NCBI GenBank assembly: GCA_964492135.1 | Contig: CAZBJW010000004.1 | Location: 294-64,293, forward strand | Source of the DNA: an uncultured Anaerolineales bacterium | GTDB taxonomy: Bacteria > Chloroflexota > Anaerolineae > UBA7937 > B3-Chlor | Reading direction: 5' to 3' | DNA: 64,000 nucleotides | Part shown: one piece after another, positions 10,846 through 51,163 of the stretch | How the letters are laid out: each line of letters opens with the position of its first letter | Position numbering within the stretch: the first letter of the stretch is position 1 | The notes under the pieces: model-generated | The model's database searches: none | What the model was told of the DNA's origin: nothing | What the model saw: the letters and a program-made list of their open reading frames with translations, nothing else | Program-made: the position numbers and the translations under genes

Positions 10846-10892
10846 AGGAGGTCAAGGTCGAAGAGCATACCATCCGCAAGATCGAACTGGAG

Positions 10893-23058: not shown

Positions 23059-23466
23059 TCGACTATAAGGACATATCTCTTCCCGGGCCGAGGTGGTGAG
23101 GGCCACATCGCACGTCAGCAGATGGGGAGGAGGCTGAAGCAGTACGTGGAGAAAGCGAATTTGCCGGGACATGTGAGCCCGCACACCTTGCGCCACTCAG
23201 CAGCGGTGCACTATTTGATAGGAGGCGCTCCCATCACCTTCGTGCAGAATCTTCTGGGGCATGAGAGCTTGGCCATCACGGGGATATACACCCAACGGGT
23301 GGACGAGATGGCCAAGGAGATCGCTCTAAACACTAAGACGGCCATCGACGAGATCGAGGCGGCGGAGCAGGGGGAGCTCTTGAAAGAGGCGACAGAGGCG
23401 TACAAGGCGGAATTGGAGGGGTGGGATGACTTTGTGGGCCAGGTGCTGGAGTGGTTGGGAACCTAG
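23059..23466 (+). pseudogene. Tyrosine recombinase (phage integrase family) C-terminal fragment
   Basis: Begins right after the epimerase stop codon. [73 protein letters not shown] carries the HxxR, the second His and the catalytic Tyr. The N-terminal core-binding and Arg-I regions are absent. Confidence 0.7.
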
Positions 23467-24905: not shown

Positions 24906-25676
24906 ATGAAGACCATAATCCTCGCTGGTGGCTTTGGCACGCGGCTCCAAGAAGAAACAACGGTTAAGCCCAAGCCCATGATTGAGATTGGCGGGCAACC
25001 GATCCTCTGGCACATTATGAACATCTATGCTACCCATGGTTACAAAGAGTTTGTCGTCGCCTTGGGGTACAAAGGAGAAAGCATCAAGAACTACTTCTTG
25101 AACTACTACTACCTGCGCACTAGTTTCAGCATGGATTTGAGTGACGGTCGCGTAGACGTTCATGACAGTGGCCGAGAGGACTGGGTTGTTCATCTGATTG
25201 ATACGGGGTTCCACACACAGACCGGAGGCCGTATCAAGCGGTTGGCTCCATGGATTGGAAACGAAACATTCATGATGACCTACGGTGATGGCGTGGCGAA
25301 TATCAATATCCGGGAGTTGGTTGCTTTTCATCGCAACCATGGGAAGCTGGCGACCATTACGGCTGTGCGCCCACCGGGCCGGTTCGGTGGTCTCAGCTTC
25401 GATGGGGATCTGGTGGCCAGATTCGCCGAAAAGCCGCAAGTCGGTGAGGGGTGGATCAACGGGGGCTTCTTTGTGCTCGAGCCGGGCGCGTTGGACTACA
25501 TCGAGGGCGATGATACCCCCTTTGAGCGGGACCCCCTGGAACGGTTGACCCAGGACGGGCAGTTGGTGGCCTATCGGCATGATGATTTCTGGCAGTGCAT
25601 GGACACACTGCGCGACGTGCGCCTGCTTGAGGCACTGTGGGCCGAGGGTAGGGCGCCATGGAAAGTGTGGGAATGA
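24906..25676 (+). CDS. rfbF: Glucose-1-phosphate cytidylyltransferase
   Basis: 256 aa. [68 protein letters not shown] is near-canonical RfbF. Confidence 0.9.
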
Positions 25677-26653
25677 CAAACTCGTTCTGGCTGGATCGGT
25701 CAACCTTCCTTACGGGGGCAACAGGGCTGTTGGGTGGCTGGTTGGTGCGTCGGTTGCTGGAATTAGGCGCTGATGTGGTATGTCTGATGCGGGATTGGGT
25801 GCCGCAGAGTGAACTTGTTCGTTCCAGGCTGATTGAACAGGTTAAAGTGGTGCGAGGCGATGTGCGTGATCAGACACTGCTGGAACGAGTGTTGGGGGAG
25901 TATGAGATCGACACCGTTTTCCATCTGGCGGCCCAGACGATTGTGAGCATCGCCAACCGCAACCCGCTTTCAACCTTTGAGACCAATATTCAGGGTACTT
26001 GGGCACTGTTGGAGGCATGTGGGCGTAGTCCTACAGTCAAACAGATCGTGTTGGCATCGTCGGACAAAGCCTATGGGGATCACGAGGAGTTGCCCTACGA
26101 CGAGGAAACGCCTCTGCAAGGCCGCCACCCCTATGATGTGAGCAAGTCGTGTGCCGACCTGATTGCTCAAGCCTACGCTACTACTTATGGCCTGCCGGTG
26201 GCGATCACCCGGTGCGGTAATTTCTACGGTGGTGGTGACCTGAACTGGAACCGCATTGTCCCTGGAACAATCCGTTCTGTGCTGCGCGGCCAGCGTCCCA
26301 TCATCCGGTCTGATGGGAACTACGTGCGGGATTACTTCTATGTGGAGGATGCTGCTGCCGCCTACATTCTGCTGGCCGAACAAATGGCTCAATGCCCGGA
26401 GCTATACGGTCAAGCGTTCAACTTCTCTAATGAAACCCCGGTGCCAGTGCTGGATCTGGTCCGGCGAATCCTGGTTCTGATGGGTTCGGACTTGCAGCCG
26501 GAGATCCGGAGCGAGGCAACCAACGAGATCCGCTACCAGTATCTTAGTGCTGAAAAGGCACGCCGAATTTTGGGTTGGAAGCCGCTATTTACGCTGGACG
26601 AAGGATTGAAGGCCACGATTGAGTGGTATCGAAGGTTTCTTGCTGATGAATAA
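25673..26653 (+). CDS. rfbG: CDP-glucose 4,6-dehydratase-like SDR
   Basis: [65 protein letters not shown] (RfbG-type block). Overlaps the rfbF stop. Confidence 0.7.
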
Positions 26654-27965
26654 TCAGGCTGATACGCTTCGAAGACAGATTATTGAATTGGTACGACAGT
26701 ATTATGCCGCGGCTTTTCCTGACGGTGCTTTTGTGCCAGGTGAGTCACCAATTCTGTATGCCGGGCGCGTCTTTGATGCGCACGAGTTGATCCATCTGGT
26801 AGAAGCGGCCCTGGATTTCTGGTTGACCACCGGACGCTTTGCTGATCGGTTCGAGCGTGAGTTTGCAGGCTTCTTCGGCCTCCGTCACGCTATTCTGGTT
26901 AATTCTGGTTCATCGGCCAATCTACTGGTGCTCTCCTGCCTGACCTCGCCCAAGTTGGCTGAGAGGCGTTTGAGCCCCGGTGATGAGGTTATCACAGTTG
27001 CAGCCGGTTTTCCGACTACGGTTAACCCGATCGTCCAAAACAGGCTTGTTCCAGTATTCATGGATGTCACGATACCCACCTACAACGTAGACGTGACACA
27101 GCTTGAAGGGGCCTATTCCGAGCGAACCCGTGCCATCATGCTTGCCCACACCCTGGGGAATCCTTTTGACCTCAATGCTGTGACGGCTTTCGCTCGACAT
27201 CACGATCTGTGGCTTATCGAAGACTGCTGTGACGCAGTGGGAGCTACCTACCACGGGCAGAAAGTAGGAACTTTCGGTGACCTGGCTACGGTGAGCTTCT
27301 ATCCAGCGCACCACATCACCACGGGCGAAGGGGGCTGCGTACTGACCGATCATCCAAAGCTCAAGACGCTGGTGGAATCTTTCCGAGACTGGGGGCGGGA
27401 CTGCTGGTGCAAGCCAGGGAAAGATAACACGTGCGGTAAGCGGTTTGACTGGCAATTGGGGGAGTTGCCTTACGGATACGACCACAAGTACACATATTCG
27501 CATATTGGGTATAATCTAAAACTGACCGATATGCAAGCAGCGGTGGGAGTAGCGCAACTGAAGAAGCTGCCATCCTTTATTGAGACACGGCGACGTCATT
27601 TCCGACTGTTACATAAGGGGTTAGAAGACCTGGAGGAATTCTTCATCCTGCCCCAATCAACCCCAGAAAGTGAACCCAGTTGGTTTGGTTTCCCATTAGC
27701 GATACGGCCCGAGGCACCGTTCACTCGGGATGAGGTCGTACGCTACCTGGAGAAGCACAAGATCGCGACCCGGCTGCTTTTTGGGGGAAACCTGGTACGG
27801 CAACCAGCCTACCGTGACGCTCCGTATCGGGTGGTTGGGAATCTGGAGAACTCGGATTTTGTGATGAATCACGTCTTCTGGATTGGCGTATACCCTGGCC
27901 TTTCGCAGGAGATGCTGGCGTATGTCATAGATGTGCTCCATCAAGGAGTGGAGGTGCTAAAATGA
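26619..27965 (+). CDS. rfbH: CDP-6-deoxy-4-keto-glucose 3-dehydrase (E1, RfbH/DdhC type, PMP and Fe-S dependent)
   Basis: 448 aa with an aminotransferase fold. His replaces the Schiff-base Lys ([14 protein letters not shown]), and the Cys cluster is [17 protein letters not shown]. Confidence 0.85.
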
Positions 27966-29800
27966 CAACTAGCAAGCAAAATGTGTTTTCCGATGCAACA
28001 GCCACAGATCGAACTGTCGAAGTCTTCAAGCAAGCTGTGCGAAAAGATTTCTCCTTTCTTAAGCAGACTACACGGCTCGACGACCTCTTCGCCAAAAGTA
28101 TCCCCCTGGCGCATGGCGCGGGGTTCCTGGTGCCGGTTTGCGAGCTGCACGCCACGGACGATGGGCTAATCGCAAAGCTGGCGCAGTGGAGAGCCGAAAA
28201 CGCCTTCGCGTACCCCACGCAATTCCCAGTGACCATTGCTGGTACGACCTCGTGGCTACGTTCGAAGCTTCTCGATGTCGAGGACCGCATCCTGTTTTTG
28301 GTTCTTGATCGGTACGGAAATCCCATCGGTCATCTCGGCTTTGCCAATGCCATTAACGATGAGGGGGAGATGGAGATTGACAACGTGGTGCGTGGCGTGA
28401 AAGGGGTCCAGCCTGGTATCATGAGCAGCGCTATGGAGGCGTTGCTGAATTGGGCAGAAGAAACCATAGGGCCTCGCGTTATCTACTTGAGAGTATTCAA
28501 CGACACTCACCACGCGATCAAGTTCTATCGTAAATTGGGCTTCGAAGACGAGCATTTACTGCCTTTGCGCCGGCATGAGGAAGGCGAAAGAGTCGAATAC
28601 CGCCCATTGGCTGAAGATGACCACGATGAACCCGATAAGTACTTTCTGCGAATGGTCTATGTGCCGGACAGAACTGCAGATGCCTCTGAAATGATCCTGA
28701 CCGCAGGACCTTCGATATCGGCTCGTGAAGCGAGCTATGCTTTGGATGCAGCTCGCTATGGTTGGAATCGCCAGTGGAGTAGCTACATCAAACGATTCGA
28801 GGCTGCCTTTGCTGAATACGTGGGGACTAAGTATGCACTCAGTACGGCGTGTGGTACCGGAGCACTGCATTTGGCGTTAGCTGCTTTAGGGATCGGACCG
28901 GGTGATGAGGTAATCGTTCCTGATGTCACCTGGGTGGCAACGGGTAATGCCGTGGTCTATGTTGGGGCTACGCCAATCTTTGCAGACATCGAGCCCGGCA
29001 GTTGGTGTCTGGATCCAGCGTCTTTTGAAGCAGCGATCACCGAGCGTACCAAGGCTGTGATACCAGTACACTTATATGGTCATCCAGCGCGGATGGACAA
29101 AATCATGGAAATTGCCCGAAAGCATAACCTCTATGTGGTTGAGGATGCAGCCCCGGCGATTGGCGCCGAGTTCCAGGGGCAAAGGACCGGGACATTTGGT
29201 GACTTTGCAATGTTTAGCTTCCAGGGCGCCAAATTGGTAGTTACAGGTGAGGGTGGCATGTTGGTTACCAATGACGATGAGCTGTACAAGAGAGTTTATG
29301 CTATTTGGGATCAAGGCCGAACACCTGGAACTTTTTGGATCAGCGAGGTTGGGTGGAAATACAAGATGTCCAACATCCAGGCGGCGATCGGTTTGGGGCA
29401 ACTGGAGCGAGTTGATGAGCTCACTGAGGCAAAGCGCCGCATTTTCTCCTGGTATGCCGAGGGGCTGAAAGATGTGCCGTATGTCAGACTAAACTATGAA
29501 ATGCCCTGGGCGCGCAGTATTTACTGGATGTCCAGTTTACTTCTGGATGAGAAAGCTGACCTTACGCGCGATGAACTGCGTGAGGCTCTCAAAGAACGCA
29601 ACGTAGATACACGATCAGTCTTCCCAGCAATCAGTCAATACCCTATATGGCCAAAGCCCCAGCAACCTCAGCCCACTGCTCTTCATGTGGGAAACCAGGC
29701 GATTAACCTACCTAGCGGAGTTTGTCTGAAGCGCGAGCAAGTAAGCTACATTTGTCGCTGTATTAAAGACATTCTGGCTGAAGGGAAATGGGTAGAGTGA
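27962..29800 (+). CDS. Bifunctional GNAT-type acyltransferase :: DegT/DnrJ/EryC1 sugar aminotransferase
   Basis: 612 aa. N-terminal domain: [21 protein letters not shown]...[15 protein letters not shown]...[12 protein letters not shown] (GNAT). C-terminal domain: [26 protein letters not shown]...[10 protein letters not shown]...[15 protein letters not shown] (Lys present). ATGA overlap with rfbH. Confidence 0.75.
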
Positions 29801-30612
29801 GCACAGGATCAAGCGCTATGCTGGCCCGTGCCATTCGTGCTCATGCTTTGCGAATGGTGAATCAAGCAAAAGCATCACATATCGGCACCTGTCTCAGCAT
29901 GGCAGACCTGCTAGCTGTGTTGTGTGGGCAGGTGCTGAAGGTAGATCCAATCCAACTAGACTGGCTCGACCGGGACCGTTTTATCCTGAGCAAGGGGCAC
30001 GGTGCTGCCATCTTGTATGCTGTGTTGGCAGAACGGAGCTTTTTCCCAGTCGAATGGCTGGACAGCTACTGCCAGAACGGCTCAATGTTGGCTGGGCATG
30101 TTACTTACGGTGTGCCAGGTGTGGAAGTTTCTACAGGCTCTTTGGGACATGGTTTGCCTATTGGTTGCGGCATGGCCCTGGCTGGCAAGCGCGAAGGCAA
30201 GTCCTACCGGGTCTTTGTAATGCTGAGTGATGGTGAGTGTGACGAAGGTTCCACATGGGAGGCAGTGCTGTTCGCACCTCATCATCGGCTGGACAACCTG
30301 ATCGCCATTGTGGACTATAACAAAATCCAAGCCTTTGGCAATGTCAAAGAAGTGCTGGACCTAGACCCACTGGCAGACAAATGGCGCGCCTTTCGGTGGG
30401 CGGTGCGAGAGATTGATGGGCACGACTATGAGCAGATCGAAGATGCCCTGACCAGCGTGCCTTTTGAACCAGGCAAGCCCAGTGCCATCGTTGCTCACAC
30501 CGTCAAGGGCAAAGGCGCCAGTTTCATGGAAAATGATCTCGTATGGCATTACAAGTCGCCTGATGACGAACAATTGGCTCAGGCACTAGCCGAGTTGGGA
30601 GTTTGCTATTGA
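29788..30612 (+). CDS. Transketolase, N-terminal (ThDP pyrophosphate-binding) subunit
   Basis: 274 aa with HIGTCLSMADLLAVL, DRFILSKGHGA, GSLGHGLPIGCGMALAGK, MLSDGECDEGSTWEA and VDYNKIQ. Confidence 0.85.
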   Translation: MGRVSTGSSAMLARAIRAHALRMVNQAKASHIGTCLSMADLLAVLCGQVLKVDPIQLDWLDRDRFILSKGHGAAILYAVLAERSFFPVEWLDSYCQNGSMLAGHVTYGVPGVEVSTGSLGHGLPIGCGMALAGKREGKSYRVFVMLSDGECDEGSTWEAVLFAPHHRLDNLIAIVDYNKIQAFGNVKEVLDLDPLADKWRAFRWAVREIDGHDYEQIEDALTSVPFEPGKPSAIVAHTVKGKGASFMENDLVWHYKSPDDEQLAQALAELGVCY

Positions 30613-31559
30613 GAACTGCTTTTATCAAAACCCTTTGTGAGCTGGCTGAGCAGGATGAACGAATTTGGCTGCTCACTGGCGATCTGGGCTATTCAGTATT
30701 AGAACGCTTCATTACACGCTTCCCTGATCGCTTTGTCAATGTGGGTGTGGCCGAGCAGAACATGACGGGCGTGGCCGCTGGCTTAGCGTTGTGCGGCAAG
30801 ATCGTTTTTACGTACTCCATCGCGAATTTCCCAATCATGCGCTGCCTGGAGCAAATTCGCAACGACGTGTGTTATCACAACTTGAATGTCAAGATTGTGG
30901 CAGTAGGAGGTGGGCTGGCCTATGGCTCAGCCGGTTATACCCATCACGCTGTCGAGGATTTAGCAGTCATGCGGGTCATGCCCAATATGACCGTTGTCGC
31001 TCCTGGCGATCCTGTTGAAGCAGGACTGGCGACCAAAGCGATAGTGAATTGGCCAGGGCCATGTTACCTACGATTGGGCAAGAGAGGTGAGCCGGCTGTT
31101 CATAGAGCCGAACCCGAGTTTCAAATTGGCAAAGCACTTGTGGTCCGAGAAGGCAACGACGTAACACTTATTAGCACAGGGGGGATGTTGGTCACAGCCG
31201 TTGAAGTGAGCGATTTGCTTGCAGCGAAGGGCGTATCAGCACGAGTAGTGAGTATGCACACTCTCAAGCCGATTGATGTGGACGCGGTACGGAAGGCAAC
31301 GCAAACAGGACTAATCGTTACCGTTGAAGAGCATACAGCAATTGGCGGACTGGGTAGCGCTGTTTCTGACGTATTGGCAACGGAAGAGAATTCCCCCTCC
31401 CTAATGACCCTGAACGCTGGAATGCAACCTGTGACGCTGGTTGGTGATCAGGCCTACTTACGTGGGCTACTAGGGCTCGAAATGCAAAGCATTGCTCGTG
31501 CGGTCTTGAGCCGTCTGGCATCTCAGAGAAGCCATGGGGCTGAGTATGGCAGCAATTAG
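30603..31559 (+). CDS. Transketolase, C-terminal (pyrimidine-binding) subunit
   Basis: 318 aa with FVNVGVAEQNMTGVAAGLALCGKIVFTYSIANF, HHAVEDLAVMRVMPNMTVVAPGD and VEEHTAIGGLGSAV. Confidence 0.85.
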   Translation: MLLRTAFIKTLCELAEQDERIWLLTGDLGYSVLERFITRFPDRFVNVGVAEQNMTGVAAGLALCGKIVFTYSIANFPIMRCLEQIRNDVCYHNLNVKIVAVGGGLAYGSAGYTHHAVEDLAVMRVMPNMTVVAPGDPVEAGLATKAIVNWPGPCYLRLGKRGEPAVHRAEPEFQIGKALVVREGNDVTLISTGGMLVTAVEVSDLLAAKGVSARVVSMHTLKPIDVDAVRKATQTGLIVTVEEHTAIGGLGSAVSDVLATEENSPSLMTLNAGMQPVTLVGDQAYLRGLLGLEMQSIARAVLSRLASQRSHGAEYGSN

Positions 31560-32391
31560 TGCTGTATTAGGCGTCTACACTGAAGAAGCACGTATCGAAT
31601 CAACACTCCGTTGCGCGTTGTGGTGTGATGAAATCGTCGTGATGGATAAGCAAAGCACCGACCGCACCCGCGAAATTGCCCAACGGTACACCGATAAAGT
31701 CTATGAGATGCCTCATTCAGAGTTTGATCCAAATGAACTTCAGAGAATCGTTGAGAGTGCCAGCGGTGAGTGGATTCTGTGGCTCACTGCCAGCGATGTC
31801 ATACACCCGGTGCTTGCTATCCAAATTCGTGAGTTGATTGAGCGTGACGACTTTCCATACGATGTTATTCATGTACCCTACCGTCGCTATGTCTTGGGCC
31901 TGGAAACGAAGCGATCGCCCTGGTATAGCAAGGTACACCCCGCTGTCTTTCGCAAACGGGTGGTGAAGATTCGTCACGACGATGTGCATGGGGCCATTAG
32001 CTTTGACACGGAGCGCCACTATGAAATGGCAAATTCCGCTGAGCATTGTATGTACCACCTCACCCATGAAACGGTAGATATTATGATGGAACGTCATTTA
32101 CGCTACTGTCGTGCCGAAGGACGCATCTTTCCGCCAGATTGGTCCATGGGTAAGGCGGCTCTAGCTACCCTAAAAGCGACTTATCGGGTATTTGTGCAGC
32201 GCAAAACACCCCTGATGGGCTGGAACGGAATTGCACTGGGAGCTGCTTATCTTTCTTACCTTTTACTCCGTTTTGTTTATATCTGGGAGCATCGCTCGTC
32301 CGAAGCCCCGGAGGTGTATCGACAGATCAGGCGCGATATTCTCGAGGCATGGAATAATCAATCACCGCTGGATGCAGGTTATGAGCGCTAG
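31534..32391 (+). CDS. GT2-family glycosyltransferase (short form)
   Basis: ISAVLGVYTEEARIESTLRCALWCDEIVVMDKQSTDRTREIAQRY...WILWLTASDVIHP. The true start may be the ATG a few codons in. Confidence 0.65.
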   Translation: MGLSMAAISAVLGVYTEEARIESTLRCALWCDEIVVMDKQSTDRTREIAQRYTDKVYEMPHSEFDPNELQRIVESASGEWILWLTASDVIHPVLAIQIRELIERDDFPYDVIHVPYRRYVLGLETKRSPWYSKVHPAVFRKRVVKIRHDDVHGAISFDTERHYEMANSAEHCMYHLTHETVDIMMERHLRYCRAEGRIFPPDWSMGKAALATLKATYRVFVQRKTPLMGWNGIALGAAYLSYLLLRFVYIWEHRSSEAPEVYRQIRRDILEAWNNQSPLDAGYER

Positions 32392-36115: not shown

Positions 36116-36964
36116 ATGAATCCTGATCCTTTAGTTTCTATTGTCACTCCTTCCCTCAATCAGGCTCAGTTTCTCGAAGAAACCATCCGCTCAGTGCTGA
36201 GTCAAGACTATCCGCGCATTGAGTACATAATTTGCGATGGAGGCTCGACCGATGGTAGCGTAAACATCATCCGCAAGTATGCGGATCGGCTGGCTTGGTG
36301 GTGCAGCGAGAAGGACCAGGGGCAATCAGACGCAATCAATAAGGGGTGGAAACGCGCGACAGGGGAAATCTATGCTTATCTGAATTCGGATGACACGCTG
36401 GAATCTGGCGCTGTCAGAGTGGTCGTGGAGGCTTTTCAAGCCAACCCGCACGCGGGGGTTGTGCATGGTGGATGGCGCTATATAGATGCGTATGGACATG
36501 AAATAGGTATTGGTCGCGGTGCACAGACTGATTTTAATCGGCTGCTGCGTGATGGACAGATCTCTTGTGTCGCTCAGCCAGCCTCATTCTTTCGTGCTAG
36601 TCTGGTGTGCCAGGTTGGGCTGCTTGACCGGACGTTGCATATGTCAATGGACTATGACCTGTTGCTTCGCTTGGCGCGCGTATCCGAGATGGTTTATGTG
36701 CGGCGCGTGCTCGCGAGTTACAGAATACATACCAGCGCCAAGTCACCATCTTTTGCAGAACGTCACTGGCAAGAGTCCTTATTAGTGCGAGCCCGGTATG
36801 GGGGACGCTATTTTCTTAAGCCACGTTTGCAGTATCTACGCTACCGTTTCTTGCGTGCCATGCCGAAACCTGTACAGATCTTGTTTCGGCGTTTGCGCAA
36901 TTCGGTCAAAGACCGGGTGTACTTGCAGACTGAAGAGAATGCTACGAATAAAGAGCGTTCTTAG
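36116..36964 (+). CDS. GT2-family glycosyltransferase
   Basis: MNPDPLVSIVTPSLNQAQFLEETIRSVLSQDYPRIEYIICDGGSTDGS and LNSDDTL. The start was moved to the ATG at 36116 because the upstream part of the ORF is the hairpin repeat region. Confidence 0.85.
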   Translation: MNPDPLVSIVTPSLNQAQFLEETIRSVLSQDYPRIEYIICDGGSTDGSVNIIRKYADRLAWWCSEKDQGQSDAINKGWKRATGEIYAYLNSDDTLESGAVRVVVEAFQANPHAGVVHGGWRYIDAYGHEIGIGRGAQTDFNRLLRDGQISCVAQPASFFRASLVCQVGLLDRTLHMSMDYDLLLRLARVSEMVYVRRVLASYRIHTSAKSPSFAERHWQESLLVRARYGGRYFLKPRLQYLRYRFLRAMPKPVQILFRRLRNSVKDRVYLQTEENATNKERS

Positions 36965-38303
36965 ATGGCGTTCTGCCCACTTTCATCGCGCGATGATCGC
37001 CTGTGCATTGCTCGCTATCTCTGGGCTCTTGACGCAGGGGGATCACGTTGTGCAAGCCCTCCGACGCAATTGGGCTGCTGTTGTCATTAATCAGGCGTGG
37101 AATAAGGTCACATATCGAGGGGCACGCAATGATCACCTACAGGACGGCATTCCCGATGGGTGGGGTGTAACCTGGTGGGGTGGCTCAACGCAGGTTTATG
37201 CAATTGAGAACCAAGATGCTCTGGCAGGTGATCGAGTCACCCGAATTAACCATACCAACGCTCAAGGTGGCGCGGCTTTGACTCAGAGAATAGCAGTAGA
37301 GCCCAATTCTCATCTCGTTGTCACCGTATATGCGAAGGGAGCAGGGGGAGCCATTCATGTTTGGTTCCGTACGCGGGAAGAGGGAGACTGGGTAAGAGAG
37401 GGCTTAGGAGGATGGAGATATATAGAACCGACTGAGGATTGGCAGGAGTTTCATTTGTCTGTTACTGTTCCTTCTGGCATGAATGACGCTATGCTCCTTC
37501 TATACTTAGACTCAAGAGGTTCTACATCTTTCGATGAAGCTTACGCTGGAGTGGATAATAATGGACTCTTGGGGCCCAATCTGCTTAGGAATCCCGGCTT
37601 CGAACAAGATGGCGTCTCAGAGGATCCATTGGAGTGGTGGCAAAGTCATGTTGTTACTGGAGTTCTTGTAGTGCCAGAGGGCGGTATGCCTGAGAGGCTG
37701 AGCTACTCAAATATCACTGACATGTTGGCTGGGCGATACGACGCTGTTGCACGGCGCGCACATCATTTGGGCACCCGTTGTGTCTTGGCCCCGGAGATGA
37801 CTAGTTGGTTGACTGCACTTGGCAATCAATTTGAACAAGAAGGGGGAGCGGCTGCGCGTGAGCGGCTTTATCAGCTGGCAATTAAGTTAATGCCGAATTG
37901 CCCACAGCCCTATGCTGCGCTGGCTGGACTCTACCGGTCCCACTATGCATCCTGGCGCGCGGCTGAACTTCACCATCAAGCGGCTGAGCTATCGGGTGAA
38001 ACAGCTCTGGCGGGAGCGTACTACTTTGCAGAAGGTTTTTTGCATGTGACGCATACTGGTGACATGGAACGCGCAATTCCTACTCTCCAACGGGCGGAGC
38101 AATTGAGCGGTTGGGAGGGGAATCGCTGGTATCGGGGAGCAGCTTCTTTTTACCTGGGCCGGGCTCTGGAAGCAGAGGGGCGTCTTGTAGAAGCAGCGGC
38201 TGCTTATCAGCGTGTGCTTGACTGCGCGCAGTGCAGCTATCATCACGCGGGCGCACTTGAGCGGTTGAATGCGCTATTTGGTGGGGGAGAGCAGGGTCAA
38301 TAA
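36939..38303 (+). CDS. Membrane-anchored protein with a CBM4/9-like jelly-roll region and a C-terminal TPR-like region
   Basis: N-terminal anchor MIACALLAISGLL. Carbohydrate-binding-module-like segments are GIPDGWGVTWWGG...WQEFHLSVTVP and LLRNPGFEQDGVSEDPLEWW. Helical repeats near the C-terminus include AAAYQRVLDCAQ. Start uncertain. Confidence 0.4.
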   Translation: MLRIKSVLRWRSAHFHRAMIACALLAISGLLTQGDHVVQALRRNWAAVVINQAWNKVTYRGARNDHLQDGIPDGWGVTWWGGSTQVYAIENQDALAGDRVTRINHTNAQGGAALTQRIAVEPNSHLVVTVYAKGAGGAIHVWFRTREEGDWVREGLGGWRYIEPTEDWQEFHLSVTVPSGMNDAMLLLYLDSRGSTSFDEAYAGVDNNGLLGPNLLRNPGFEQDGVSEDPLEWWQSHVVTGVLVVPEGGMPERLSYSNITDMLAGRYDAVARRAHHLGTRCVLAPEMTSWLTALGNQFEQEGGAAARERLYQLAIKLMPNCPQPYAALAGLYRSHYASWRAAELHHQAAELSGETALAGAYYFAEGFLHVTHTGDMERAIPTLQRAEQLSGWEGNRWYRGAASFYLGRALEAEGRLVEAAAAYQRVLDCAQCSYHHAGALERLNALFGGGEQGQ

Positions 38304-39835
38304 TGGACTTGTCACTAGGTCGTGGAATTGCCCGAATCAGATGGAGCCATCTGGCTGCCATCGTGGTTCTGGTATCCACGGCAGTCGCCGGATTGCTCGT
38401 CGCTCGTACCCCCAAACTTGCTTATATTGTTCTGTTATGCGAGGGATTTGTAGCGCTGAGCATCTGGATTTTGACATCCTCCGAGCGCGTATGTTGGTAT
38501 ATGCTATTGGGGACTGTTTTTGTAGCGGCCTTTGGCGCTTTTTTGGATATCATCCTGCATATGCCCTTCATGTGGTTGTTGAGTTTATTTGTGATTTACT
38601 TCTTTGCGTTATTGCAGATTAGAGGGAGCCTATTCCCTGTTGGAGCAACTAGCATTAAGAAAAGTCTCCCGCTAATCGGCACAGCCCTACTTTGTTATGC
38701 GATCTACTACTTTCTGCAATCAATACGAGTCGGCATCAATGGGTTACTGGGCTTTCGCAAGCCGTTCACAAACTTGGCCTTCTATCTTATCACCTTTCAG
38801 TTACTCTTAAGGGCGGACAGAGATGAGTTGAGGGACCGATTGCGTGATTTTGCACTGGTTATTCTGGTTGCCGGCATCTTTGTAGCCAGCTATGCCATCT
38901 TTCAGTACGTGGTTGGCGAACAGTTCTTGAGGAGCCGGGGTTTAGTAGAAGCAGCATCGTCTCACCAAGGATGGTATGGGAAGGGCATGATGGCATTCCG
39001 TCCGTATGGAACCATGCGGCGTGCTGAGGGACTGGGGTCTTTTCTTTATCTGGACATCGTGATGGCTATGATACTTCTCGGGTTGGGCTATCGCCGCCGG
39101 AGATTGGTCTGGTTCAACTTGATTCTGGTAGCCCCGGCGCTCATCCTTAGTATGAGCCTGGTGTCTATTGTCACCACCGGTTTGTTTTTTCTCCTCACAG
39201 TGCCTGTTGGCTTCTCGGAACTCCGCAAATATGCTGTTCCTTTATTTCTGATTTTGTTGGTAGCGGCGATTGGAGTAAACTATATTTCGGGCAACATGCT
39301 TCTTGGGAGATTCATGTGGCATCTAGAGCGAGCACAAGAAGGTGAGGGGCGTTTGGAACTGACTATGAATTGGGGGCGAGAGATAATGGTGCGATCTATT
39401 CCCCAAAATCTACTTGGAAGCGGCATTTGCACAGGAATCGATGATGCAACTCTAATTCGAATAAGGGGCGTTTTGGATGCACTTGGAATTCCAGTTGGAC
39501 CCTTGTTCGCTTGTTCTTGGCAATTTGAGGTCCACGACAATTTATATGCGGTTACCTATCTGGAGATTGGCTTTATTGGATTCATCTTGCTACTCCTGCC
39601 TATGCTGTTGGCCTTTCCCATAAGGCAGCATTTGCGGTATCTGAGGCCAGTTTCGGCGCGCGAGGCATATCGTTCGTTGGCCAATTTTGTCATAGCTGCT
39701 ATTCCGGCTGGTCTTGTTGCTGGCTTGCTTGGGCCCATGCCGGTTTGCATGTATTTTTGGATACTGATGGCTTTCTTGGACACTGGAGGAATGGCTGCGC
39801 GGTCTTCCGCAGCGAGTTCTTTCAGGACAGCCTGA
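38303..39835 (+). CDS. Wzy/O-antigen-polymerase-like polytopic membrane protein
   Basis: 510 aa with 10 or more hydrophobic segments and one large loop. Its position next to GT and flippase genes supports the call. No strong sequence motif was recognised. Confidence 0.5.
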   Translation: MDLSLGRGIARIRWSHLAAIVVLVSTAVAGLLVARTPKLAYIVLLCEGFVALSIWILTSSERVCWYMLLGTVFVAAFGAFLDIILHMPFMWLLSLFVIYFFALLQIRGSLFPVGATSIKKSLPLIGTALLCYAIYYFLQSIRVGINGLLGFRKPFTNLAFYLITFQLLLRADRDELRDRLRDFALVILVAGIFVASYAIFQYVVGEQFLRSRGLVEAASSHQGWYGKGMMAFRPYGTMRRAEGLGSFLYLDIVMAMILLGLGYRRRRLVWFNLILVAPALILSMSLVSIVTTGLFFLLTVPVGFSELRKYAVPLFLILLVAAIGVNYISGNMLLGRFMWHLERAQEGEGRLELTMNWGREIMVRSIPQNLLGSGICTGIDDATLIRIRGVLDALGIPVGPLFACSWQFEVHDNLYAVTYLEIGFIGFILLLLPMLLAFPIRQHLRYLRPVSAREAYRSLANFVIAAIPAGLVAGLLGPMPVCMYFWILMAFLDTGGMAARSSAASSFRTA

Positions 39836-42250: not shown

Positions 42251-42489
42251 TACGAGCGGGAGGCAGACAGAACTCTTTGGAGCCAATGCTACCCTGCTGT
42301 GTGGCATCACCATCGGTCGCTAGGTCCTGATCGGCGCGGGCAGTGTGGTCACACATGAAGTACCGGGCTCCGCCCTCGTCTACGGCAACCCAGCGTGGCA
42401 GTACGGCTGGAGTTCAACGACGCTTCGCCGGCTGCGAGTGCGGGCTGGTGTATCAGAAGCAAGGAGATGTAGTGGAGGAGTTGCGATGA
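42251..42489 (+). pseudogene. C-terminal remnant of a left-handed beta-helix N-acetyltransferase (paralog of 45355-45954)
   Basis: YEREADRTL / FGANATLLCGITIGR-stop(42321)-VLIGAGSVVTHEVPGSALVYGNPA / ECGLVYQKQGDVVEEL. Parallels REEYDRTL...GANATLLCPITIGRHALVGAGAVVTRDVPDFALVYGNPA...QCGLRYRKTG in the intact copy. Same ATGA overlap with the following DegT gene. Confidence 0.65.
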
Positions 42490-43595
42490 ACATTCCCCTG
42501 GTTGATCTGCGCGCCCAGTACGACGAACTCCGCGGGCAGATAGACGCTGCTGTGCGCGATATCATTGACCGTTCGTCGTTCATCGGGGGGCCTTACGTCG
42601 AGGGCTTTGAACGGGACTTCGCAACCTATTGCCGTGTGCACTATGCCGTTGGTACTTCTTCGGGTACCTCCGCTCTGCATCTAGCCTTGCTAGCCTGCGA
42701 TGTGGGGCCGGGAGATGAAGTCATCACCACCCCCCATACCTTCACTGCGACTGCCGAGGCCATCTTCCACGCTGGAGCCAGGCCTGTCTTCGTGGACATT
42801 GATATGGATTCGTATGAAATAGATCCAACTCAGATCGAAGACACCGTTACCGAGAGGACTAAAGCCATCATCCCTGTTCACCTCTACGGCCGCCCAGCGG
42901 AGATGGATCCCATCATGGACATTGCTAACCGACATGGTCTGAAAGTGATCGAGGACGCAGCTCAGGCCCACGGAGCCGAATACAAGGGGCAGCGGGTGGG
43001 TTCCATTGGCAATGTGGCTTGCTTCAGCTTCTACCCGGCCAAGAACCTAGGGGCTTACGGAGACGGCGGGATAGTGATCACCAACAACGAGGAGATCGCC
43101 AAGGAGGTGCGGATACTGCATGACCATGGACGACGGGAGAAGTATGAGCATCTGTTGGTGGGCTATGGCTACCGACTAGATGCCCTGCAGGCGGCCATTC
43201 TTAAAGTCAAGCTAGCACACCTCGACGAATGGAACCAGCGGCGGCGGGAGAGCGCCGAGACCTACTGCGAATTGCTCAATGGCCTCGATTTGGTGCTACC
43301 GACCGAGCCGGAACATCTTAGATCCGTCTATCACCTATTCGTCGTGCGCACCCCACGGCGCGATGCGCTGCGAAAGCACTTGCGTGCCAAAGGGATCCAC
43401 ACTGGCATCCATTACCCCATCCCCTTGCATCTGCAACCATGTTTCAATCAGCTAGGTTACAGCGGGGGAGATTTCCCCAATGCCGAGAAAGCCGCCGAAG
43501 AGGTGCTATCTTTGCCCCTCTACCCTGAGTTAACAGAGGTGCAAATTGGCTACATCGCCGATTCAGTCCGCACTTTCTTCAACCGAATCAGTTAA
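42486..43595 (+). CDS. DegT/DnrJ/EryC1/StrS sugar aminotransferase (WbpE-like)
   Basis: MNIPLVDLRAQYDELRGQIDAAVRDIIDRSSFIGGPYVEGFERDFA..., SGTSALHLALLA, IEDAAQAHGA, FSFYPAKNLGAYGDGG. Confidence 0.85.
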   Translation: MNIPLVDLRAQYDELRGQIDAAVRDIIDRSSFIGGPYVEGFERDFATYCRVHYAVGTSSGTSALHLALLACDVGPGDEVITTPHTFTATAEAIFHAGARPVFVDIDMDSYEIDPTQIEDTVTERTKAIIPVHLYGRPAEMDPIMDIANRHGLKVIEDAAQAHGAEYKGQRVGSIGNVACFSFYPAKNLGAYGDGGIVITNNEEIAKEVRILHDHGRREKYEHLLVGYGYRLDALQAAILKVKLAHLDEWNQRRRESAETYCELLNGLDLVLPTEPEHLRSVYHLFVVRTPRRDALRKHLRAKGIHTGIHYPIPLHLQPCFNQLGYSGGDFPNAEKAAEEVLSLPLYPELTEVQIGYIADSVRTFFNRIS

Positions 43596-43627
43596 TCTGC
43601 TAGCTTGCTCAGAATAGGAGATACTGT

Positions 43628-45328
43628 ATGCGTAACGGACAAAGAGTGCTAATCATCGGTCTGGACGGTGCCACGCTGGACATCATTGAGCCGATGGCTC
43701 GAGAGGGTAAATTGCCAACCTTTGCACGCTTGATGCGCGAAGGGAGCTATGGTCGGCTCGAATCGGTGCCTAATACTTGGAGTCCAGCTGCGTGGACATC
43801 ATTTATGACTGGGACGAATCCTGGCAAGCATGGTATTCTCTACTTCGATAAACGCATACCTGGAAGCTATGAAAGCCGATACATCAGCGGCGCCTCGCGC
43901 TCTGGCCATACCTTCTGGGAAGCACTAAGCAACATGGGAAAGCGTGTGGGCGTGGTAAACGTGCCTATGACTTATCCCGCTCAACATTTGAATGGTTTCA
44001 TGATTGCCGGTCTCGATGCCCCGGGCCTCGACAGCCCAGGTTTTGCCTATCCATCTGAACTGCAAGATGAGTTAGGGCGCATGGGCTATATCATCCAGCC
44101 CGGCATCCAAACATACATCAAATCTGGTCGGTTAGCTGAGGGAGCACACCGCCTATACGAGACAACGAATAAGCGAGCGGCAACAGTGCATTACCTGATG
44201 GATGCCTACCCTGACTGGGATCTCTTTGTAGTTGTCTTCAACCAACTGGATGCAGCTCAGCATGCGTACTGGAGGTATATGGATGGCAATCATCTAGAGC
44301 ATGACCCTGAAGCCGCTCGCGAGCTTGGTCACGTCATCCCTGATCTCTACATCAAGCTCGATCACGAGGTGGGTCGTCTGATTTCCCGCTGCCCCAACAC
44401 GATTGTGATTGTGATGTCGGACCATGGCTTCGGGTTCAAGCAAGAAGGCGCCTTCTACATTAACGAATGGTTAGCAGCCCAAGGCCTATTGGCATACACT
44501 AAAGCTATAGATCGCAGTGGTTCGTCGTTGCGAAGCCTGGCTGTGAGTATGCTACGCTGGGGACACTACCAGATTGATAAGAATCTCACTCGAGACACCA
44601 AATTGCGTCTCATGCGGGTGGTCCCGGGCTTACGTGGCAAAGTCGAGTCTGCCATCCGTCTGGGTGGAGTTGATTGGTCAAAGACCCAAGCTTTCTGCGA
44701 CAATGCACGTGATGAAATTTGGATTAATCTGAAGGGGCGTTTCCCACAAGGTATCGTTACTGAAGGTGCCGAGTACAATGCATTGTGCCAACGCATTAGT
44801 GAGGAATTGATGACTTGGCGTGATACCGAAACCGGTGTGCCACTCGTCAAGCGCGTGTATCGCCGTGAAGAACTCTATCATGGACCAAACTTGTATGAGA
44901 CCCCCGACTTGCTTGTACGTTGGCGAGACGTACAAATTCACGGTGTGAGAGCAGGTGATTTCATTTTACGTCGCGACAATCTGAGGAAGAGTGCATCACA
45001 GAGTCCCGTAAGCGGAGGGCATCGATTCCATGGTATCCTATTCTTACATGGTCCTGGCATCCGTCAGGGCATTAAGTTAACAGGTCCATCGATCATGGAT
45101 ATCGCGCCGACGATATCGTATTTGTTCAACGCAGGTATTTCCAGTGATTTCGACGGGCGTGTGCTTCTTGACGTTTTCGAGGACTATCTTATCCAGAAAA
45201 CCTCACCTGGGCAGAGCGATCAATCAAGGGCCCACGGGGATTTACCCGATCAACCCACCATTGGTTATTCAGAGGAGGAAGTAGAACAAATCGCAGAACG
45301 ATTGAGGGGACTTGGTTACTTTAGCTAG
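43628..45328 (+). CDS. Alkaline-phosphatase-superfamily protein (nucleotide pyrophosphatase/phosphodiesterase type)
   Basis: 566 aa with VLIIGLDGATLDII, SVPNTWSPAAWTSFMTGTNPGKHG, VIVMSDHGFG and GGHRFHGILFLHGPGI. Confidence 0.75.
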   Translation: MRNGQRVLIIGLDGATLDIIEPMAREGKLPTFARLMREGSYGRLESVPNTWSPAAWTSFMTGTNPGKHGILYFDKRIPGSYESRYISGASRSGHTFWEALSNMGKRVGVVNVPMTYPAQHLNGFMIAGLDAPGLDSPGFAYPSELQDELGRMGYIIQPGIQTYIKSGRLAEGAHRLYETTNKRAATVHYLMDAYPDWDLFVVVFNQLDAAQHAYWRYMDGNHLEHDPEAARELGHVIPDLYIKLDHEVGRLISRCPNTIVIVMSDHGFGFKQEGAFYINEWLAAQGLLAYTKAIDRSGSSLRSLAVSMLRWGHYQIDKNLTRDTKLRLMRVVPGLRGKVESAIRLGGVDWSKTQAFCDNARDEIWINLKGRFPQGIVTEGAEYNALCQRISEELMTWRDTETGVPLVKRVYRREELYHGPNLYETPDLLVRWRDVQIHGVRAGDFILRRDNLRKSASQSPVSGGHRFHGILFLHGPGIRQGIKLTGPSIMDIAPTISYLFNAGISSDFDGRVLLDVFEDYLIQKTSPGQSDQSRAHGDLPDQPTIGYSEEEVEQIAERLRGLGYFS

Positions 45329-45354
45329 AACCTTCGATCGAGCACGGAGCACCC

Positions 45355-45954
45355 ATGCGGGATACAGACCAGATACATATTCATCCGACTGCTTTAGTGG
45401 AATCAAGCACTATTGGTAATGGGACTCGCATCTGGGCTTTTGTCCATGTGCTCCAAGGGGCCCAGATTGGTGAGGATTGCAACATTGGCGATCACTGCTA
45501 CATCGAAGACGGCGTTCGTATCGGCGATGAGGTGGTCATCAAGAATGGTGTCTCCCTCTGGACCGGTGTGACGATCGAGGATCGCGTCTTTATCGGCCCC
45601 AACGTCACCTTCACCAACGACTTGGTGCCCCGGGCCAAGGTTTATCGAGAGGAGTACGACCGCACCCTGGTCAAAGAAGGGAGTAGCATCGGCGCCAATG
45701 CTACTCTGCTTTGTCCCATTACCATTGGCCGCCACGCCCTTGTGGGCGCGGGGGCTGTTGTCACCCGCGACGTGCCTGACTTTGCCCTTGTCTACGGCAA
45801 CCCTGCCCGGCTCCATGGCTTCGTCTGCAAGTGCGGCCAGAGATTGCCCTTCGAGCCGGATGAGAAGAACGAGGCCACCGCTACCTGTCAATGCGGTTTG
45901 CGCTATCGCAAAACCGGTCTCCGGGTTGAACATATGGAAAAGCTTATAGCATGA
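45355..45954 (+). CDS. Left-handed beta-helix sugar N-acetyltransferase (WbpD/WlbB-like)
   Basis: 199 aa. IHPTALVESSTIGNGTRIWAFVHVLQGAQIGEDCNIGDHCYIEDGVRIGDEVVIKNGVSLWTGVTIEDRVFIGPNVTFTND shows hexapeptide repeats. Confidence 0.8.
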   Translation: MRDTDQIHIHPTALVESSTIGNGTRIWAFVHVLQGAQIGEDCNIGDHCYIEDGVRIGDEVVIKNGVSLWTGVTIEDRVFIGPNVTFTNDLVPRAKVYREEYDRTLVKEGSSIGANATLLCPITIGRHALVGAGAVVTRDVPDFALVYGNPARLHGFVCKCGQRLPFEPDEKNEATATCQCGLRYRKTGLRVEHMEKLIA

Positions 45955-46236
45955 ACATTCCACCACGCTGACCATCTGTACCTAGTTCGAGTGCTGGAGT
46001 GAGGCGGGATACGCGAGGCCTTAATTGATCGAGGTATCATCACTGGCTTGCATTACCCCGTCCCTCTGCACTTGCAGGAGGCTTATCTCTGTCTGGGCCA
46101 TCACCAAGGTGCCTTCCCTGCCGCTGAAGAGGCAGCTCGTACTGTGCTCTCTCTGCCTATGCATCCACGTCTGACGAAAAAGCAAGTAGATTACGTGAGT
46201 CACACTATCAAAGAGGCGCTGAAGCTGACGGGTTAA
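45951..46236 (+). pseudogene. DegT-type aminotransferase remnant (first 6 codons + C-terminal ~75 codons)
   Basis: MNIPPR then a stop. In another frame, HLYLVRV...REALIDRGIITGLHYPVPLHLQEAYLCLGHHQGAFPAAEEAARTVLSLPMHPRLTKKQVDYVSHTIKEAL parallels the C-terminus of 42486-43595. Confidence 0.65.
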
Positions 46237-46265
46237 TTCGCCCGATTGGTGTCAGGATAGAAACG

Positions 46266-46949
46266 ATGCAAATCGCGCGTTCAGATACCTTTATCCAAGA
46301 CAAACGTCTGTATCTCGTCATCAAACGAGGCATGGACATCGTCGGTGCCCTAGTGGGCCTGATCCTGTTCGGCCCCCTGATGCTCATCATCGCCATCGCC
46401 ATCAAGTTGGATTCCCGCGGTCCGGTCCTCTTTGTGCAGAAGGCGATCGGCAAAGATGGCAAACCCTTCAACATGATCAAATTTCGTTCGATGTATCACG
46501 GGGCCGACGAGACTGAACACCGGCGCTTTGTCGAAGCCTTTGTGCAGGGCGAGAAGACCGGTCGTGACATTGATCCACGGACTGGTGAGCCGGCTTACAA
46601 AATCGTCGACGATCCCCGAATTACGCGTGCGGGTCATTTTCTGCGCCGGACCGGGCTGGACGAGGCACCCCAGTTCTTCAATGTCCTAAAAGGCGACATG
46701 AGCCTGGTGGGGCCTCGTCCCCCACTCCCCTATGAGTACTCCCTGTACGACGATTGGGCCAAACAGCGCTTAGTCGTGCGCCCTGGCATCACCGGTTTGC
46801 ACCAGATCCGGAAGCGCAGCCGGACTAACTTCCGGGAAATGGTGGAGACCGATCTAGAATATATTGAAAAGATGTCATTGTGGCTGGACATCAAGCTTCT
46901 GCTCCTGACGATCCCTGTAATCACTATCCTGGGCAAAGGAGCGTATTGA
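46266..46949 (+). CDS. Small polyprenyl-phosphate sugar-phosphate transferase (PglC/WecP-like bacterial sugar transferase)
   Basis: 227 aa with KRGMDIVGALVGLILFGPLMLIIAIAIKLDSRGPVLFVQ, KFRSM, DDPRITRAGHFLRRTGLDEAPQFFNVLKGDMSLVGPRPPLP. Confidence 0.85.
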   Translation: MQIARSDTFIQDKRLYLVIKRGMDIVGALVGLILFGPLMLIIAIAIKLDSRGPVLFVQKAIGKDGKPFNMIKFRSMYHGADETEHRRFVEAFVQGEKTGRDIDPRTGEPAYKIVDDPRITRAGHFLRRTGLDEAPQFFNVLKGDMSLVGPRPPLPYEYSLYDDWAKQRLVVRPGITGLHQIRKRSRTNFREMVETDLEYIEKMSLWLDIKLLLLTIPVITILGKGAY

Positions 46950-47015
46950 GGAGACAGAGGGGCAAAGGATCTAGACCAGCCGAAACCGAAAGGTTGATAA
47001 GGAAGAAGGCAAGCA

Positions 47016-49210: not shown

Positions 49211-49252
49211 GCGGGATTGCCAACGGGGGCCCAGGGAGAAGGAGTTGAGACC

Positions 49253-51037: not shown

Positions 51038-51163
51038 GTTCCTCGATACCTCCACCATGCTTTATTCCACAAACCAGATAGTTGGGGACGTTAACAATCC
51101 ATAGATCCAGTATGGGTGGTTGGTCGCCATAGTTTTTTCGACAACGGGAGGTAATGATATCAC

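Follow-up and report, generated by a model that had tools for sequence, protein, structure and literature searches.

A split transketolase gene pair in a Chloroflexota CDP-sugar operon, a candidate branching enzyme for nucleotide-activated 4-keto sugars

The 64,000-nucleotide stretch of DNA analyzed here (hereafter the window) comes from an uncultured Anaerolineales bacterium (contig CAZBJW010000004.1, positions 294 to 64,293) and carries a run of same-strand genes at about 24.9–34 kb. Two adjacent genes in this run, which we call TK-N and TK-C, encode the two halves of a transketolase-like thiamine diphosphate (ThDP) enzyme. The gene order is rfbF-rfbG-rfbH-GNAT::aminotransferase-TK-N-TK-C-glycosyltransferase-wzx, with further glycosyltransferases downstream, and each junction from rfbF through the family 2 glycosyltransferase (GT2) gene is either an overlap or a gap of at most 20 nt. 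With junctions this tight the operon reading holds, in agreement with an earlier note on this DNA, according to which the pair is co-translated with sugar-modifying genes. Judging from sequence and gene context, we tentatively propose, with somewhat less than even confidence, that TK-N and TK-C together make up a heteromeric, ThDP-dependent carboligase that descends from split transketolases and would place a two-carbon branch on C-4 of a CDP-4-keto-3,6-dideoxyhexose before the GNAT::aminotransferase fusion enzyme modifies that branch.

The open reading frame (ORF) at 29788–30612 (274 aa) matches the Pfam family Transketolase_N (PF00456, E 4e-49, 168 bits) and contains the motifs GSLGHGLP and SDGECDEGSTWEA, and the ORF at 30603–31559 (318 aa) matches Transket_pyr (PF02779, E 6e-34) and Transketolase_C (PF02780, E 7e-25) and contains VGVAEQNM. 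All three matches lie above the gathering thresholds. For both halves, the nearest solved structure is the split transketolase of Carboxydothermus hydrogenoformans (6YAK for TK-N, E 8e-79; 6YAJ for TK-C, E 2e-68), so that the two transketolase halves and the motifs reported earlier at this site are confirmed by domain and structure matches alike. Against the transketolase model NF004559, TK-N scores 279 bits and TK-C 205 bits, a sum of about 484 that compares with a cut-off of 488 for a model built on the fused enzyme of 627 residues; against the dxs model, the scores are 28 and 159 bits. Compared with the 168 bits for Transketolase_N, TK-N reaches only 22.5 bits with the Pfam family DXP_synthase_N and 29 bits with E1_dh (PF00676), which sets it apart from the alpha subunits of E1-type enzymes. 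Nor does the pair have the single-chain TPP_enzyme_N/M/C fold of YerE-type enzymes, as Pfam finds only transketolase-family domains in it.

The public gene model of TK-N (P0001) is 264 aa long and begins at ATG 29818, with AGGA 7 nt upstream. This start leaves a gap of 17 nt after the aminotransferase stop and no overlap. TK-C most likely starts at TTG 30609, where a TTGA would overlap the TK-N stop. Two overlaps had been described for the pair: the one between its own members stands, and the one between TK-N and the aminotransferase gene holds only for the longest ORF start. The two subunits are thus placed as follows.

29818..30612, + strand: TK-N, ThDP (PP) domain subunit of a split transketolase-like enzyme (PF00456, 6YAK; longest ORF from 29788)
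30609..31559, + strand, start most likely as given: TK-C, subunit with the Pyr and C-terminal domains (PF02779, PF02780, 6YAJ; longest ORF from 30603)

Both halves were aligned to human transketolase and to 6YAK/6YAJ, and changed residues were mapped by direct homology to solved transketolases; human numbering is used throughout. TK-N keeps His37, His77, His110, His258, Asp155, and Asn185, and TK-C keeps Arg318, Ser345, Glu366 (within VAEQNM), Arg474, and the His at position 428. Across the clade formed by the relatives of the pair, His37, His77, His110, His258, and the position-428 His are invariant or nearly so. The ThDP/Mg motif is kept as SDG...N, its first Gly being replaced by Ser in 93% of the clade. 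In TK-C, on the other hand, His416 is replaced by Gly and Glu423-Asp424 by Ser-Ala, giving AVGGGLAYGSAGYTHH where canonical enzymes read ATHAGLTVGEDGASHQ. His416 is Gly in 97% of the clade, so the canonical sugar-phosphate site is incomplete even though Arg318, Ser345, and Arg474 are present, and the residue at 424, Ala in the window, is Asp in none of the 76 clade members examined, which leaves the canonical acceptor contact missing. His416 corresponds to yeast His469, a phosphate ligand; Asp424 to yeast Asp477, which binds the C2 hydroxyl of the acceptor; and position 428 to yeast His481. The hydroxymethyl group of the donor is bound by two His residues, human His110 and that at position 428. 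Further clade-specific changes are G36S, Q127H, G154S (which gives SDG for GDG), and G259Y in TK-N and S387Y, T388S, and F389I in TK-C.

The signature of kept catalytic residues and lost His416 and Asp424 marks 76 of the 78 TK-C sequences from genome loci, about 148 of the 150 best representatives of clusters at 50% identity, and all 10 of the TK-C sequences found with the fusion. One sequence clearly departs from it: L083, from a metagenome-assembled genome (MAG) of the Dehalococcoidales, is fully canonical and has GEDG. The retention of Glu366, the ThDP-binding Asp and Asn, and the catalytic His alongside the loss of two acceptor-site residues amounts to a remodeled acceptor site. The split pair is most probably not a housekeeping transketolase.

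In a neighbor-joining tree of TK-C, computed without support values, the canonical split transketolases (C. hydrogenoformans, L083, and P0264) form the sister group of a single clade from glycan gene clusters, and the window sequence falls among members with the type A architecture described below. The phylogenetic comparison with canonical split transketolases that had been recommended as a check therefore places the glycan-cluster clade apart. This clade is large: relatives of TK-N at 72–85% identity number in the thousands in metagenomes of several phyla, and the 150 closest representatives span at least some 125 clusters at 50% identity. A scan of genomes, one per species, gave 80 loci at 51–72% identity in more than 12 phyla; the hosts include Acidobacteriota, Planctomycetota, Verrucomicrobiota, Chloroflexota, Nitrospirota, and many Proteobacteria as well as bacteria of the candidate phyla radiation, an Altiarchaeote, Bacteroidales, and Lachnospiraceae. 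The ORFs of these loci were compared with the window proteins and clustered, and cluster representatives were labeled by Pfam and NCBIfam. The pair is found nearly always within glycan gene clusters.

Two architectures account for most loci. Type A consists of rfbF, a 4,6-dehydratase gene, then rfbH, a sugar C-methyltransferase gene, or nothing, then either a short-chain dehydrogenase/reductase (SDR) of about 310 aa or the GNAT::aminotransferase fusion, followed by TK-N and TK-C and often by a GtrB/PgfS-like GT2. In the cassettes that lack the fusion, it is the SDR that stands directly upstream of TK-N. A cultured example is found on plasmid pHY1 of Methylovirgula sp. HY1 (pair MHY1_RS17110/17115), where the order is rfbF-rfbG-oxidoreductase-rfbH-transketolase-transketolase C-terminal protein beside a GT2, a GtrA protein, and rfbBCDA; it is unlikely that this relative is the only transketolase of Methylovirgula. 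Type B (L006–L084, for example L013, L047, and L051), about half of the clade, combines in this order a PglC-like transferase, in certain loci an aldo-keto reductase, then a small methyltransferase resembling TylF, TK-N and TK-C, a DegT aminotransferase, and a PglF-like dehydratase, and no conserved N-acetyltransferase turned up among the neighbor families of this type. Type B implies that a sugar derived from a UDP-N-acetylhexosamine (UDP-HexNAc) is modified by the same transketolase clade. Its TylF-like methyltransferase is 56–70% identical across phyla.

Directly upstream of the pair, among 77 loci scanned, we find an SDR in 17, a DegT aminotransferase in 16, a TylF-type methyltransferase in 15, and an aldo-keto reductase in 6; directly downstream, among 66 scanned, the neighbor is a DegT protein in 14, a GT2 in 13, and a Bac_transf protein in 7. 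A TylF-like O-methyltransferase lies next to the pair in 23 loci and also in L088. We had considered TK-N, TK-C, and GT2 as a conserved core and dropped the idea, as the GtrB/PgfS-like GT2 follows the pair in only 18 loci. The GT2 found after the pair elsewhere is a polyprenyl-phosphate transferase of the GtrB/PgfS/ArnC kind, to which the 285-aa GT2 of the window is unrelated. One outlying locus, L087 on plasmid p5 of Azospirillum argentinense Az39 (48336–50098), has a pair at 51% identity that is flanked by genes for a B12-binding radical SAM protein, a cobalamin-dependent protein, a SAM methyltransferase, a kinase, and an oxidoreductase, with no annotated nucleotide-sugar genes nearby. It may represent a different use of the clade.

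The other genes of the window operon belong to the supply and use of a CDP-sugar.

24906..25676, + strand: rfbF, glucose-1-phosphate cytidylyltransferase (CDP-glucose); TIGR02623 equivalog, 383 bits, cut-off 300
25658..26653, + strand: rfbG-like NDP-hexose (nucleoside diphosphate hexose) 4,6-dehydratase of a distinct subtype; Pfam Epimerase/GDP_Man_Dehyd, TIGR02622 at 220 bits, below the cut-off of 278
26619..27965, + strand: rfbH (E1), CDP-6-deoxy-4-hexulose 3-dehydrase; NF011936, 739 bits
27962..29800, + strand: fusion of a GNAT N-acyltransferase and a DegT-family aminotransferase, 612 aa; Pfam Acetyltransf_3/1 and DegT_DnrJ_EryC1
31534..32391, + strand: GT2 glycosyltransferase, 285 aa, overlapping the TK-C stop; PF00535, 34 bits
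32231..33967, + strand: Wzx-type flippase of the same operon; Polysacc_synt_3, Polysacc_synt

The assignment of rfbFGH and the fusion upstream of the pair, already made in the earlier note, is upheld by these scores, with the qualification that the dehydratase stays below its cut-off. In 24 of 85 loci, an rfbF relative (44–62% identity) is found upstream of the pair, and rfbG-like dehydratases of 56–78% identity occupy the same position in sister cassettes. The rfbH gene probably starts at the ATG that overlaps the rfbG stop. Its product has cysteines at 204, 262, 264, and 272 (spacing 58/2/8), and the Lys that would carry pyridoxal phosphate (PLP) is replaced by His in an AHH motif (YPAHHIT). 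This E1-type iron-sulfur cysteine pattern and the His-for-Lys exchange are kept despite no gene for an E3 reductase having been found in the window or in loci L001–L085. The aminotransferase domain of the fusion is nearest to the perosamine synthase structure 3BN1 (E 2e-89) and keeps its PLP Lys (SFQGAKL). The GT2 gene at 31534..32391 is a candidate for the transferase that would act on the product sugar.

The fusion offers a second anchor from which to view the locus, and its gene contexts supply the strongest evidence for a branching role. If its aminotransferase simply aminated C-4, it should often occur without any ThDP enzyme, and its gene contexts were examined for this reason. Hundreds of relatives exist at 66–85% identity, including in Microcoleus and other cyanobacteria; a metagenome scan returned mostly plain aminotransferases, with the GNAT part present in only about 10 loci. 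The comparison rests on 17 GNAT/aminotransferase contexts (the window, L015, L018, L038, and L088–L101 minus L099), and its statistics are accordingly small. The window cassette, rfbF-rfbG-rfbH-fusion-TK-N-TK-C, recurs in Terracidiphilus (L015), a Holophagae MAG (L018), a Verrucomicrobia MAG (L038), Microcoleus (L088), L090, L091, L092, and L094, and is partly visible in L093 and L097. A split transketolase stands directly downstream in 13 of the 17 contexts, with a TylF-like methyltransferase in between in two of them (L038 and L088) and with more divergent pairs in L095 and L098. In three others, the ThDP enzyme is a TPP_enzyme_N/M/C protein, and a single 3.8-kb contig has neither, so that a ThDP enzyme adjoins the fusion or aminotransferase in 16 of 17 cases. 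L099, which is outside this count, has separate GNAT and aminotransferase genes and its transketolase pair on the opposite strand.

The exchange is clearest in L089, where the order is rfbF (62% identical to the window gene product), rfbG (72%), rfbH (58%), fusion (67/73%), a 571-aa TPP_enzyme protein, and a 308-aa GT2. The TPP_enzyme protein occupies exactly the slot of the transketolase pair. Its best match among solved structures is 5AHK at 440 bits, compared with 304 bits for true acetolactate synthases and 290 bits for 8RPH. 5AHK is probably YerE of Pseudomonas protegens, and 8RPH is probably JanthE. Structures of both P. protegens YerE and JanthE exist (PMC12247030). The presence of either enzyme type in one cassette looks like the non-orthologous displacement of one branching enzyme by another. 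Because a YerE-type enzyme needs the 4-keto group, the aminotransferase of the fusion must act later in such a cassette, using the carbonyl that the branch brings with it. That SDR and fusion alternate directly upstream of the transketolase pair parallels the YerE/YerF pair and fits what is known of acetyl branches, which undergo further modification by reductases, transaminases, or oxygenases (PMC9306805). Two of these loci hold unusual genes of their own: L100, whose cassette combines a TPP_enzyme protein with separate GNAT and aminotransferase genes, has an rfbH homolog (8010–10757, 61% identity) whose product is 915 aa long because an intein with a LAGLIDADG endonuclease domain is inserted in it, and in L098 a 798-aa fusion of a 4,6-dehydratase-like SDR with an RfbH-like DegT protein (9538–11934) directly follows the divergent pair.

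Glycan context, active site, phylogeny, and the displacement in L089 are four independent lines that support a branching role, and the suggestion that this is a candidate ThDP-dependent C2-branching enzyme outside pentose phosphate metabolism draws its support from all of them. The acceptor, donor, order of steps, and product that we infer are as follows. RfbF, the RfbG-like dehydratase, and RfbH would produce CDP-4-keto-3,6-dideoxy-D-glucose. The transketolase pair would load a C2 unit on ThDP, most likely the α,β-dihydroxyethyl (glycolaldehyde) unit taken from hydroxypyruvate or a ketose, and would add it to the C-4 carbonyl to form a tertiary alcohol with a 4-C-glycolyl (hydroxyacetyl) branch. 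The aminotransferase domain of the fusion would then aminate the side-chain carbonyl and the GNAT domain N-acylate the amine, and the resulting CDP-3,6-dideoxy-4-C-(1-acylamino-2-hydroxyethyl)hexose would enter a Wzx-dependent surface polysaccharide. Counted in bonds, the C-4 carbonyl is as far from the sugar 1-phosphate as C-1 of erythrose 4-phosphate is from its phosphate, so the old phosphate site, where the equivalents of Arg318 and Arg474 are kept, may accommodate the CDP-sugar diphosphate, and the loss of His416 and Asp424 could make room for the sugar ring. The donor is the least secure part of this scheme. Transfer of a glycolaldehyde unit, giving a branch different from that of YerE, is only mildly favored, because TK-N is of transketolase rather than DXS type, because the two His residues that bind the donor hydroxymethyl group are conserved, and because an O-methyltransferase is often near. 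With the contacts to a ketose phosphate lost, a small 2-oxo acid, hydroxypyruvate or pyruvate, is favored as donor over a sugar phosphate.

Several points weigh against this proposal. An E3 reductase of RfbI/AscD type was found neither in the window nor in transketolase loci L001–L085, a result that is provisional because the search used a crude regular expression for the Fer2 and FNR motifs; with no E3 gene detected, formation of the 3-deoxy intermediate is assumed. The aminotransferase domain is most like C-4 aminotransferases such as perosamine synthase, which, taken alone, suggests use of the 4-keto group itself. As near-identical aminotransferase partners stand beside transketolase-type and YerE-type enzymes, both could make the same acetyl branch. 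Some transketolase cassettes hold one or two sugar C-methyltransferases, look complete without the transketolase, and would give a very crowded sugar, and in the PglF/PglC/DegT clusters of type B, which make up about half of the clade, the chemistry may differ. A ketone acceptor has never been shown for any transketolase (PMC12247030).

The acetyl branch just mentioned belongs to the alternative that survives best, although we consider it unlikely. Here, the transketolase pair would still branch C-4 but would decarboxylate pyruvate as DXS does, and the product would be a 4-C-(1-acylaminoethyl) sugar of yersiniose type. That fusions 67–73% identical stand beside either a transketolase pair or a YerE-type enzyme points to similar substrates, DXS is a member of the superfamily to which transketolases belong (TK-C reaches 159 bits with the dxs model), and the loss of His416 and Asp424 removes contacts for a ketose-phosphate donor. 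TK-N, however, is of the transketolase type by a wide difference in score (279 versus 28 bits for NF004559 and dxs, 168 versus 22.5 bits in Pfam), and His110 and the position-428 His, which bind the donor hydroxymethyl group, are near-invariant in the clade. An additional hydroxyl on the branch would also be in keeping with the TylF-like O-methyltransferase that often stands beside the pair but is absent from the YerE-type cassette.

It is also conceivable, but rather improbable, that the fusion acts directly on C-4 to give a CDP-4-acylamino-3,4,6-trideoxyhexose and that the transketolase pair serves another substituent or acyl group of the same glycan. The likeness of the aminotransferase domain to C-4 aminotransferases speaks for this order, the pathway looks formally complete without the transketolase, and the DegT protein of type B could simply be the PglE-type partner of PglF. 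Direct amination nevertheless leaves unexplained why a YerE-type enzyme replaces the pair in its slot, the characterized relatives of that enzyme being ones that branch 4-keto sugars (PMC12247030), and why the position directly upstream of the pair is taken by either an SDR or the aminotransferase; moreover, the ThDP carbanion needs a carbonyl acceptor, and none would be left.

In a third scenario, which we regard as very improbable, the transketolase pair and the adjacent aminotransferase or reductase build a free ketose or an aminopolyol from an aldehyde, later attached as a non-sugar substituent. Aldehydes are the normal acceptors of transketolases, and AsnB-like amidotransferases (10 loci) and aldo-keto reductases (11 loci) lie near the pair in some loci, but type A loci are tightly linked to rfbF and a 4,6-dehydratase, the partner aminotransferase is of the nucleotide-sugar type, and the pair exchanges with a YerE-type enzyme. 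An ordinary transketolase, whether housekeeping or supplying precursors such as sedoheptulose 7-phosphate to the GDP-heptose genes 19–27 kb downstream, is scarcely credible: the HddC-, HddA-, GmhA-, and GmhB-like genes at 50312–59072 and the high overall similarity to a functional split transketolase would fit it, but His416 and Asp424 are lost, the clade sits in glycan clusters, one of them on a plasmid, and canonical split transketolases are on a separate branch. The heptose supply was rejected given the altered active site and the absence of co-occurrence, GmhA being present in one transketolase locus and HddA in none. The longest contig on record with the window gene, at 64,964 bp, extends hardly beyond the window.

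Extending the branching proposal from the window to the whole clade calls for more caution still. It is possible, and we hold it with distinctly limited confidence, that the clade consists of carboligases that accept ketones and attach hydroxyacetyl branches to NDP-4-keto-6-deoxy sugars, those of the CDP-hexose as well as those of the UDP-HexNAc lineage, and that these branches are then aminated and N-acylated, reduced, or O-methylated.

The remainder of the window contains further genes of polysaccharide synthesis and traces of mobile elements. Just upstream of the CDP-sugar cassette lies a fragment of a phage-type integrase (23122–23466, 114 aa, C-terminal part only), and the GC content drops from about 0.59 to 0.47–0.55 across 24–42 kb; together, the fragment and the drop suggest that the cassette was acquired horizontally. 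Genes for a LexA/S24-type repressor, a HerA/TrwB-like ATPase (896 aa), and a relaxase-like protein (Replic_Relax), at 2267–2974 and 8155–12734, resemble the remains of an integrative or conjugative element beside the polysaccharide region. No Pfam family matches the ORFs at 36798–38303 (501 aa) and 38303–39835 (510 aa); the second, with its many hydrophobic stretches, may be a Wzy-type polymerase. The same polymer probably receives a diacetamido sugar from a WbpB/WbpE/WbpD-like set at 42345–49210, which encodes a DegT aminotransferase, a hexapeptide acetyltransferase, a GFO/IDH/MocA oxidoreductase, and an SDR and is accompanied by a PglC-like initiating transferase and an alkaline-phosphatase-family protein. 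The region 50312–59072 encodes an NTP transferase, a GHMP kinase, a SIS isomerase, a HAD phosphatase, a WbaP-like transferase, and a phosphomannomutase, a probable GDP-D-glycero-D-manno-heptose pathway.

Branched-chain sugars shape O-antigens, capsules, and antibiotics, and there is demand for biocatalysts that yield tertiary alcohols. A transketolase-derived clade with a remodeled acceptor site is widespread in the glycan clusters of soil, freshwater, and host-associated bacteria, and in one conserved cassette a YerE-type enzyme can stand in its place. ThDP-dependent branching of nucleotide keto-sugars is itself already known; the new element is a transketolase-derived enzyme as the candidate. 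If the proposal is right, whole classes of 4-C-(1-amino- or 1-hydroxy-2-hydroxyethyl) sugars never reported in bacterial glycans would exist, and these would be the first natural transketolases to form tertiary alcohols, accepting ketones and able to use hydroxylated donors. Cultured carriers of the clade include Methylovirgula sp. HY1, Bradyrhizobium diazoefficiens SZCCT0138, Janthinobacterium sp. CG3, and Paraburkholderia piptadeniae STM7183.

Compared with known systems, the window pair shares its three domains and its ThDP-binding Asp and Asn, activating Glu, catalytic His, and two phosphate-binding Arg residues with canonical transketolases such as the human enzyme (4KXU) and with the C. 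hydrogenoformans enzyme (6YAK/6YAJ), whose two-gene architecture it also has. It differs from canonical transketolases in reading SDG for GDG, GSLGHG for GSLGQG, and WHY for WHG, in belonging to a separate clade, and in lying in a glycan operon rather than among genes of central metabolism. Our literature searches found no functional study of this clade; only a 2025 review (PMC12247030) and the description of the wps-2 exopolysaccharide cluster of Actinoplanes missouriensis (PMC13390465) surfaced. In wps-2 (AMIS_56700–56730), the order methyltransferase-TK-N-TK-C-DegT is that of type B and, unlike in type A cassettes, rfbF/G/H are absent. The authors assigned no function to these genes, and the deletion mutant had no visible phenotype (PMC13390465).

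Only the YerE-like and E1-type families of ThDP enzymes have been shown to branch nucleotide sugars; for transketolases, the role has been proposed in no more than a few Streptomyces pathways (PMC12247030). With the E1-type enzymes (AviB1/AviB2, the aldgarose enzymes, and KbDH-alpha/beta), the pair has in common that they are two-subunit alpha/beta ThDP enzymes, which in their case put C2 branches on NDP-keto sugars; these branches are later reduced, aminated, or oxidized (PMC12247030). All of these differ from the pair in belonging to the E1_dh family, in using pyruvate, and in acting on dTDP-type sugars in antibiotic clusters of actinomycetes. Another parallel is offered by the split transketolases of the miharamycin and amipurimycin pathways, which likewise lie inside keto-sugar clusters and are proposed, with none characterized in vitro, to transfer a hydroxyacetyl group (PMC12247030) and so to form a tertiary alcohol. 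The review also cites an in silico prediction of 13 Streptomyces transketolases (Krug et al. 2024, as cited in PMC12247030). Those enzymes, which we compare by description only, come from secondary-metabolite clusters of Streptomyces, whereas the present clade is found in CDP- and UDP-sugar glycan clusters of many phyla.

The YerE-like lyases (yersiniose A synthesis; ErwE, JanthE, PpYerE) are, along with the E1-type enzymes, what the pair most resembles in function. ThDP enzymes are known to branch NDP-4-keto sugars (PMC9306805). Like the window operon, the clusters of the YerE-like lyases combine rfbF/G/H for CDP-4-keto-3,6-dideoxyglucose with a gene for a branch-modifying enzyme, and the ThDP-dependent carboligation onto a C-4 ketone that we propose for the transketolase pair is the reaction described for them (PMC12247030, PMC9306805). 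The resemblance is one of function and not of family membership, as a split transketolase and a single-chain TPP_enzyme_N/M/C protein belong to unrelated fold families. The chemistry would differ accordingly in the branch itself: YerE decarboxylates pyruvate and leaves an acetyl branch, whereas a transketolase-type enzyme would be expected to transfer glycolaldehyde.

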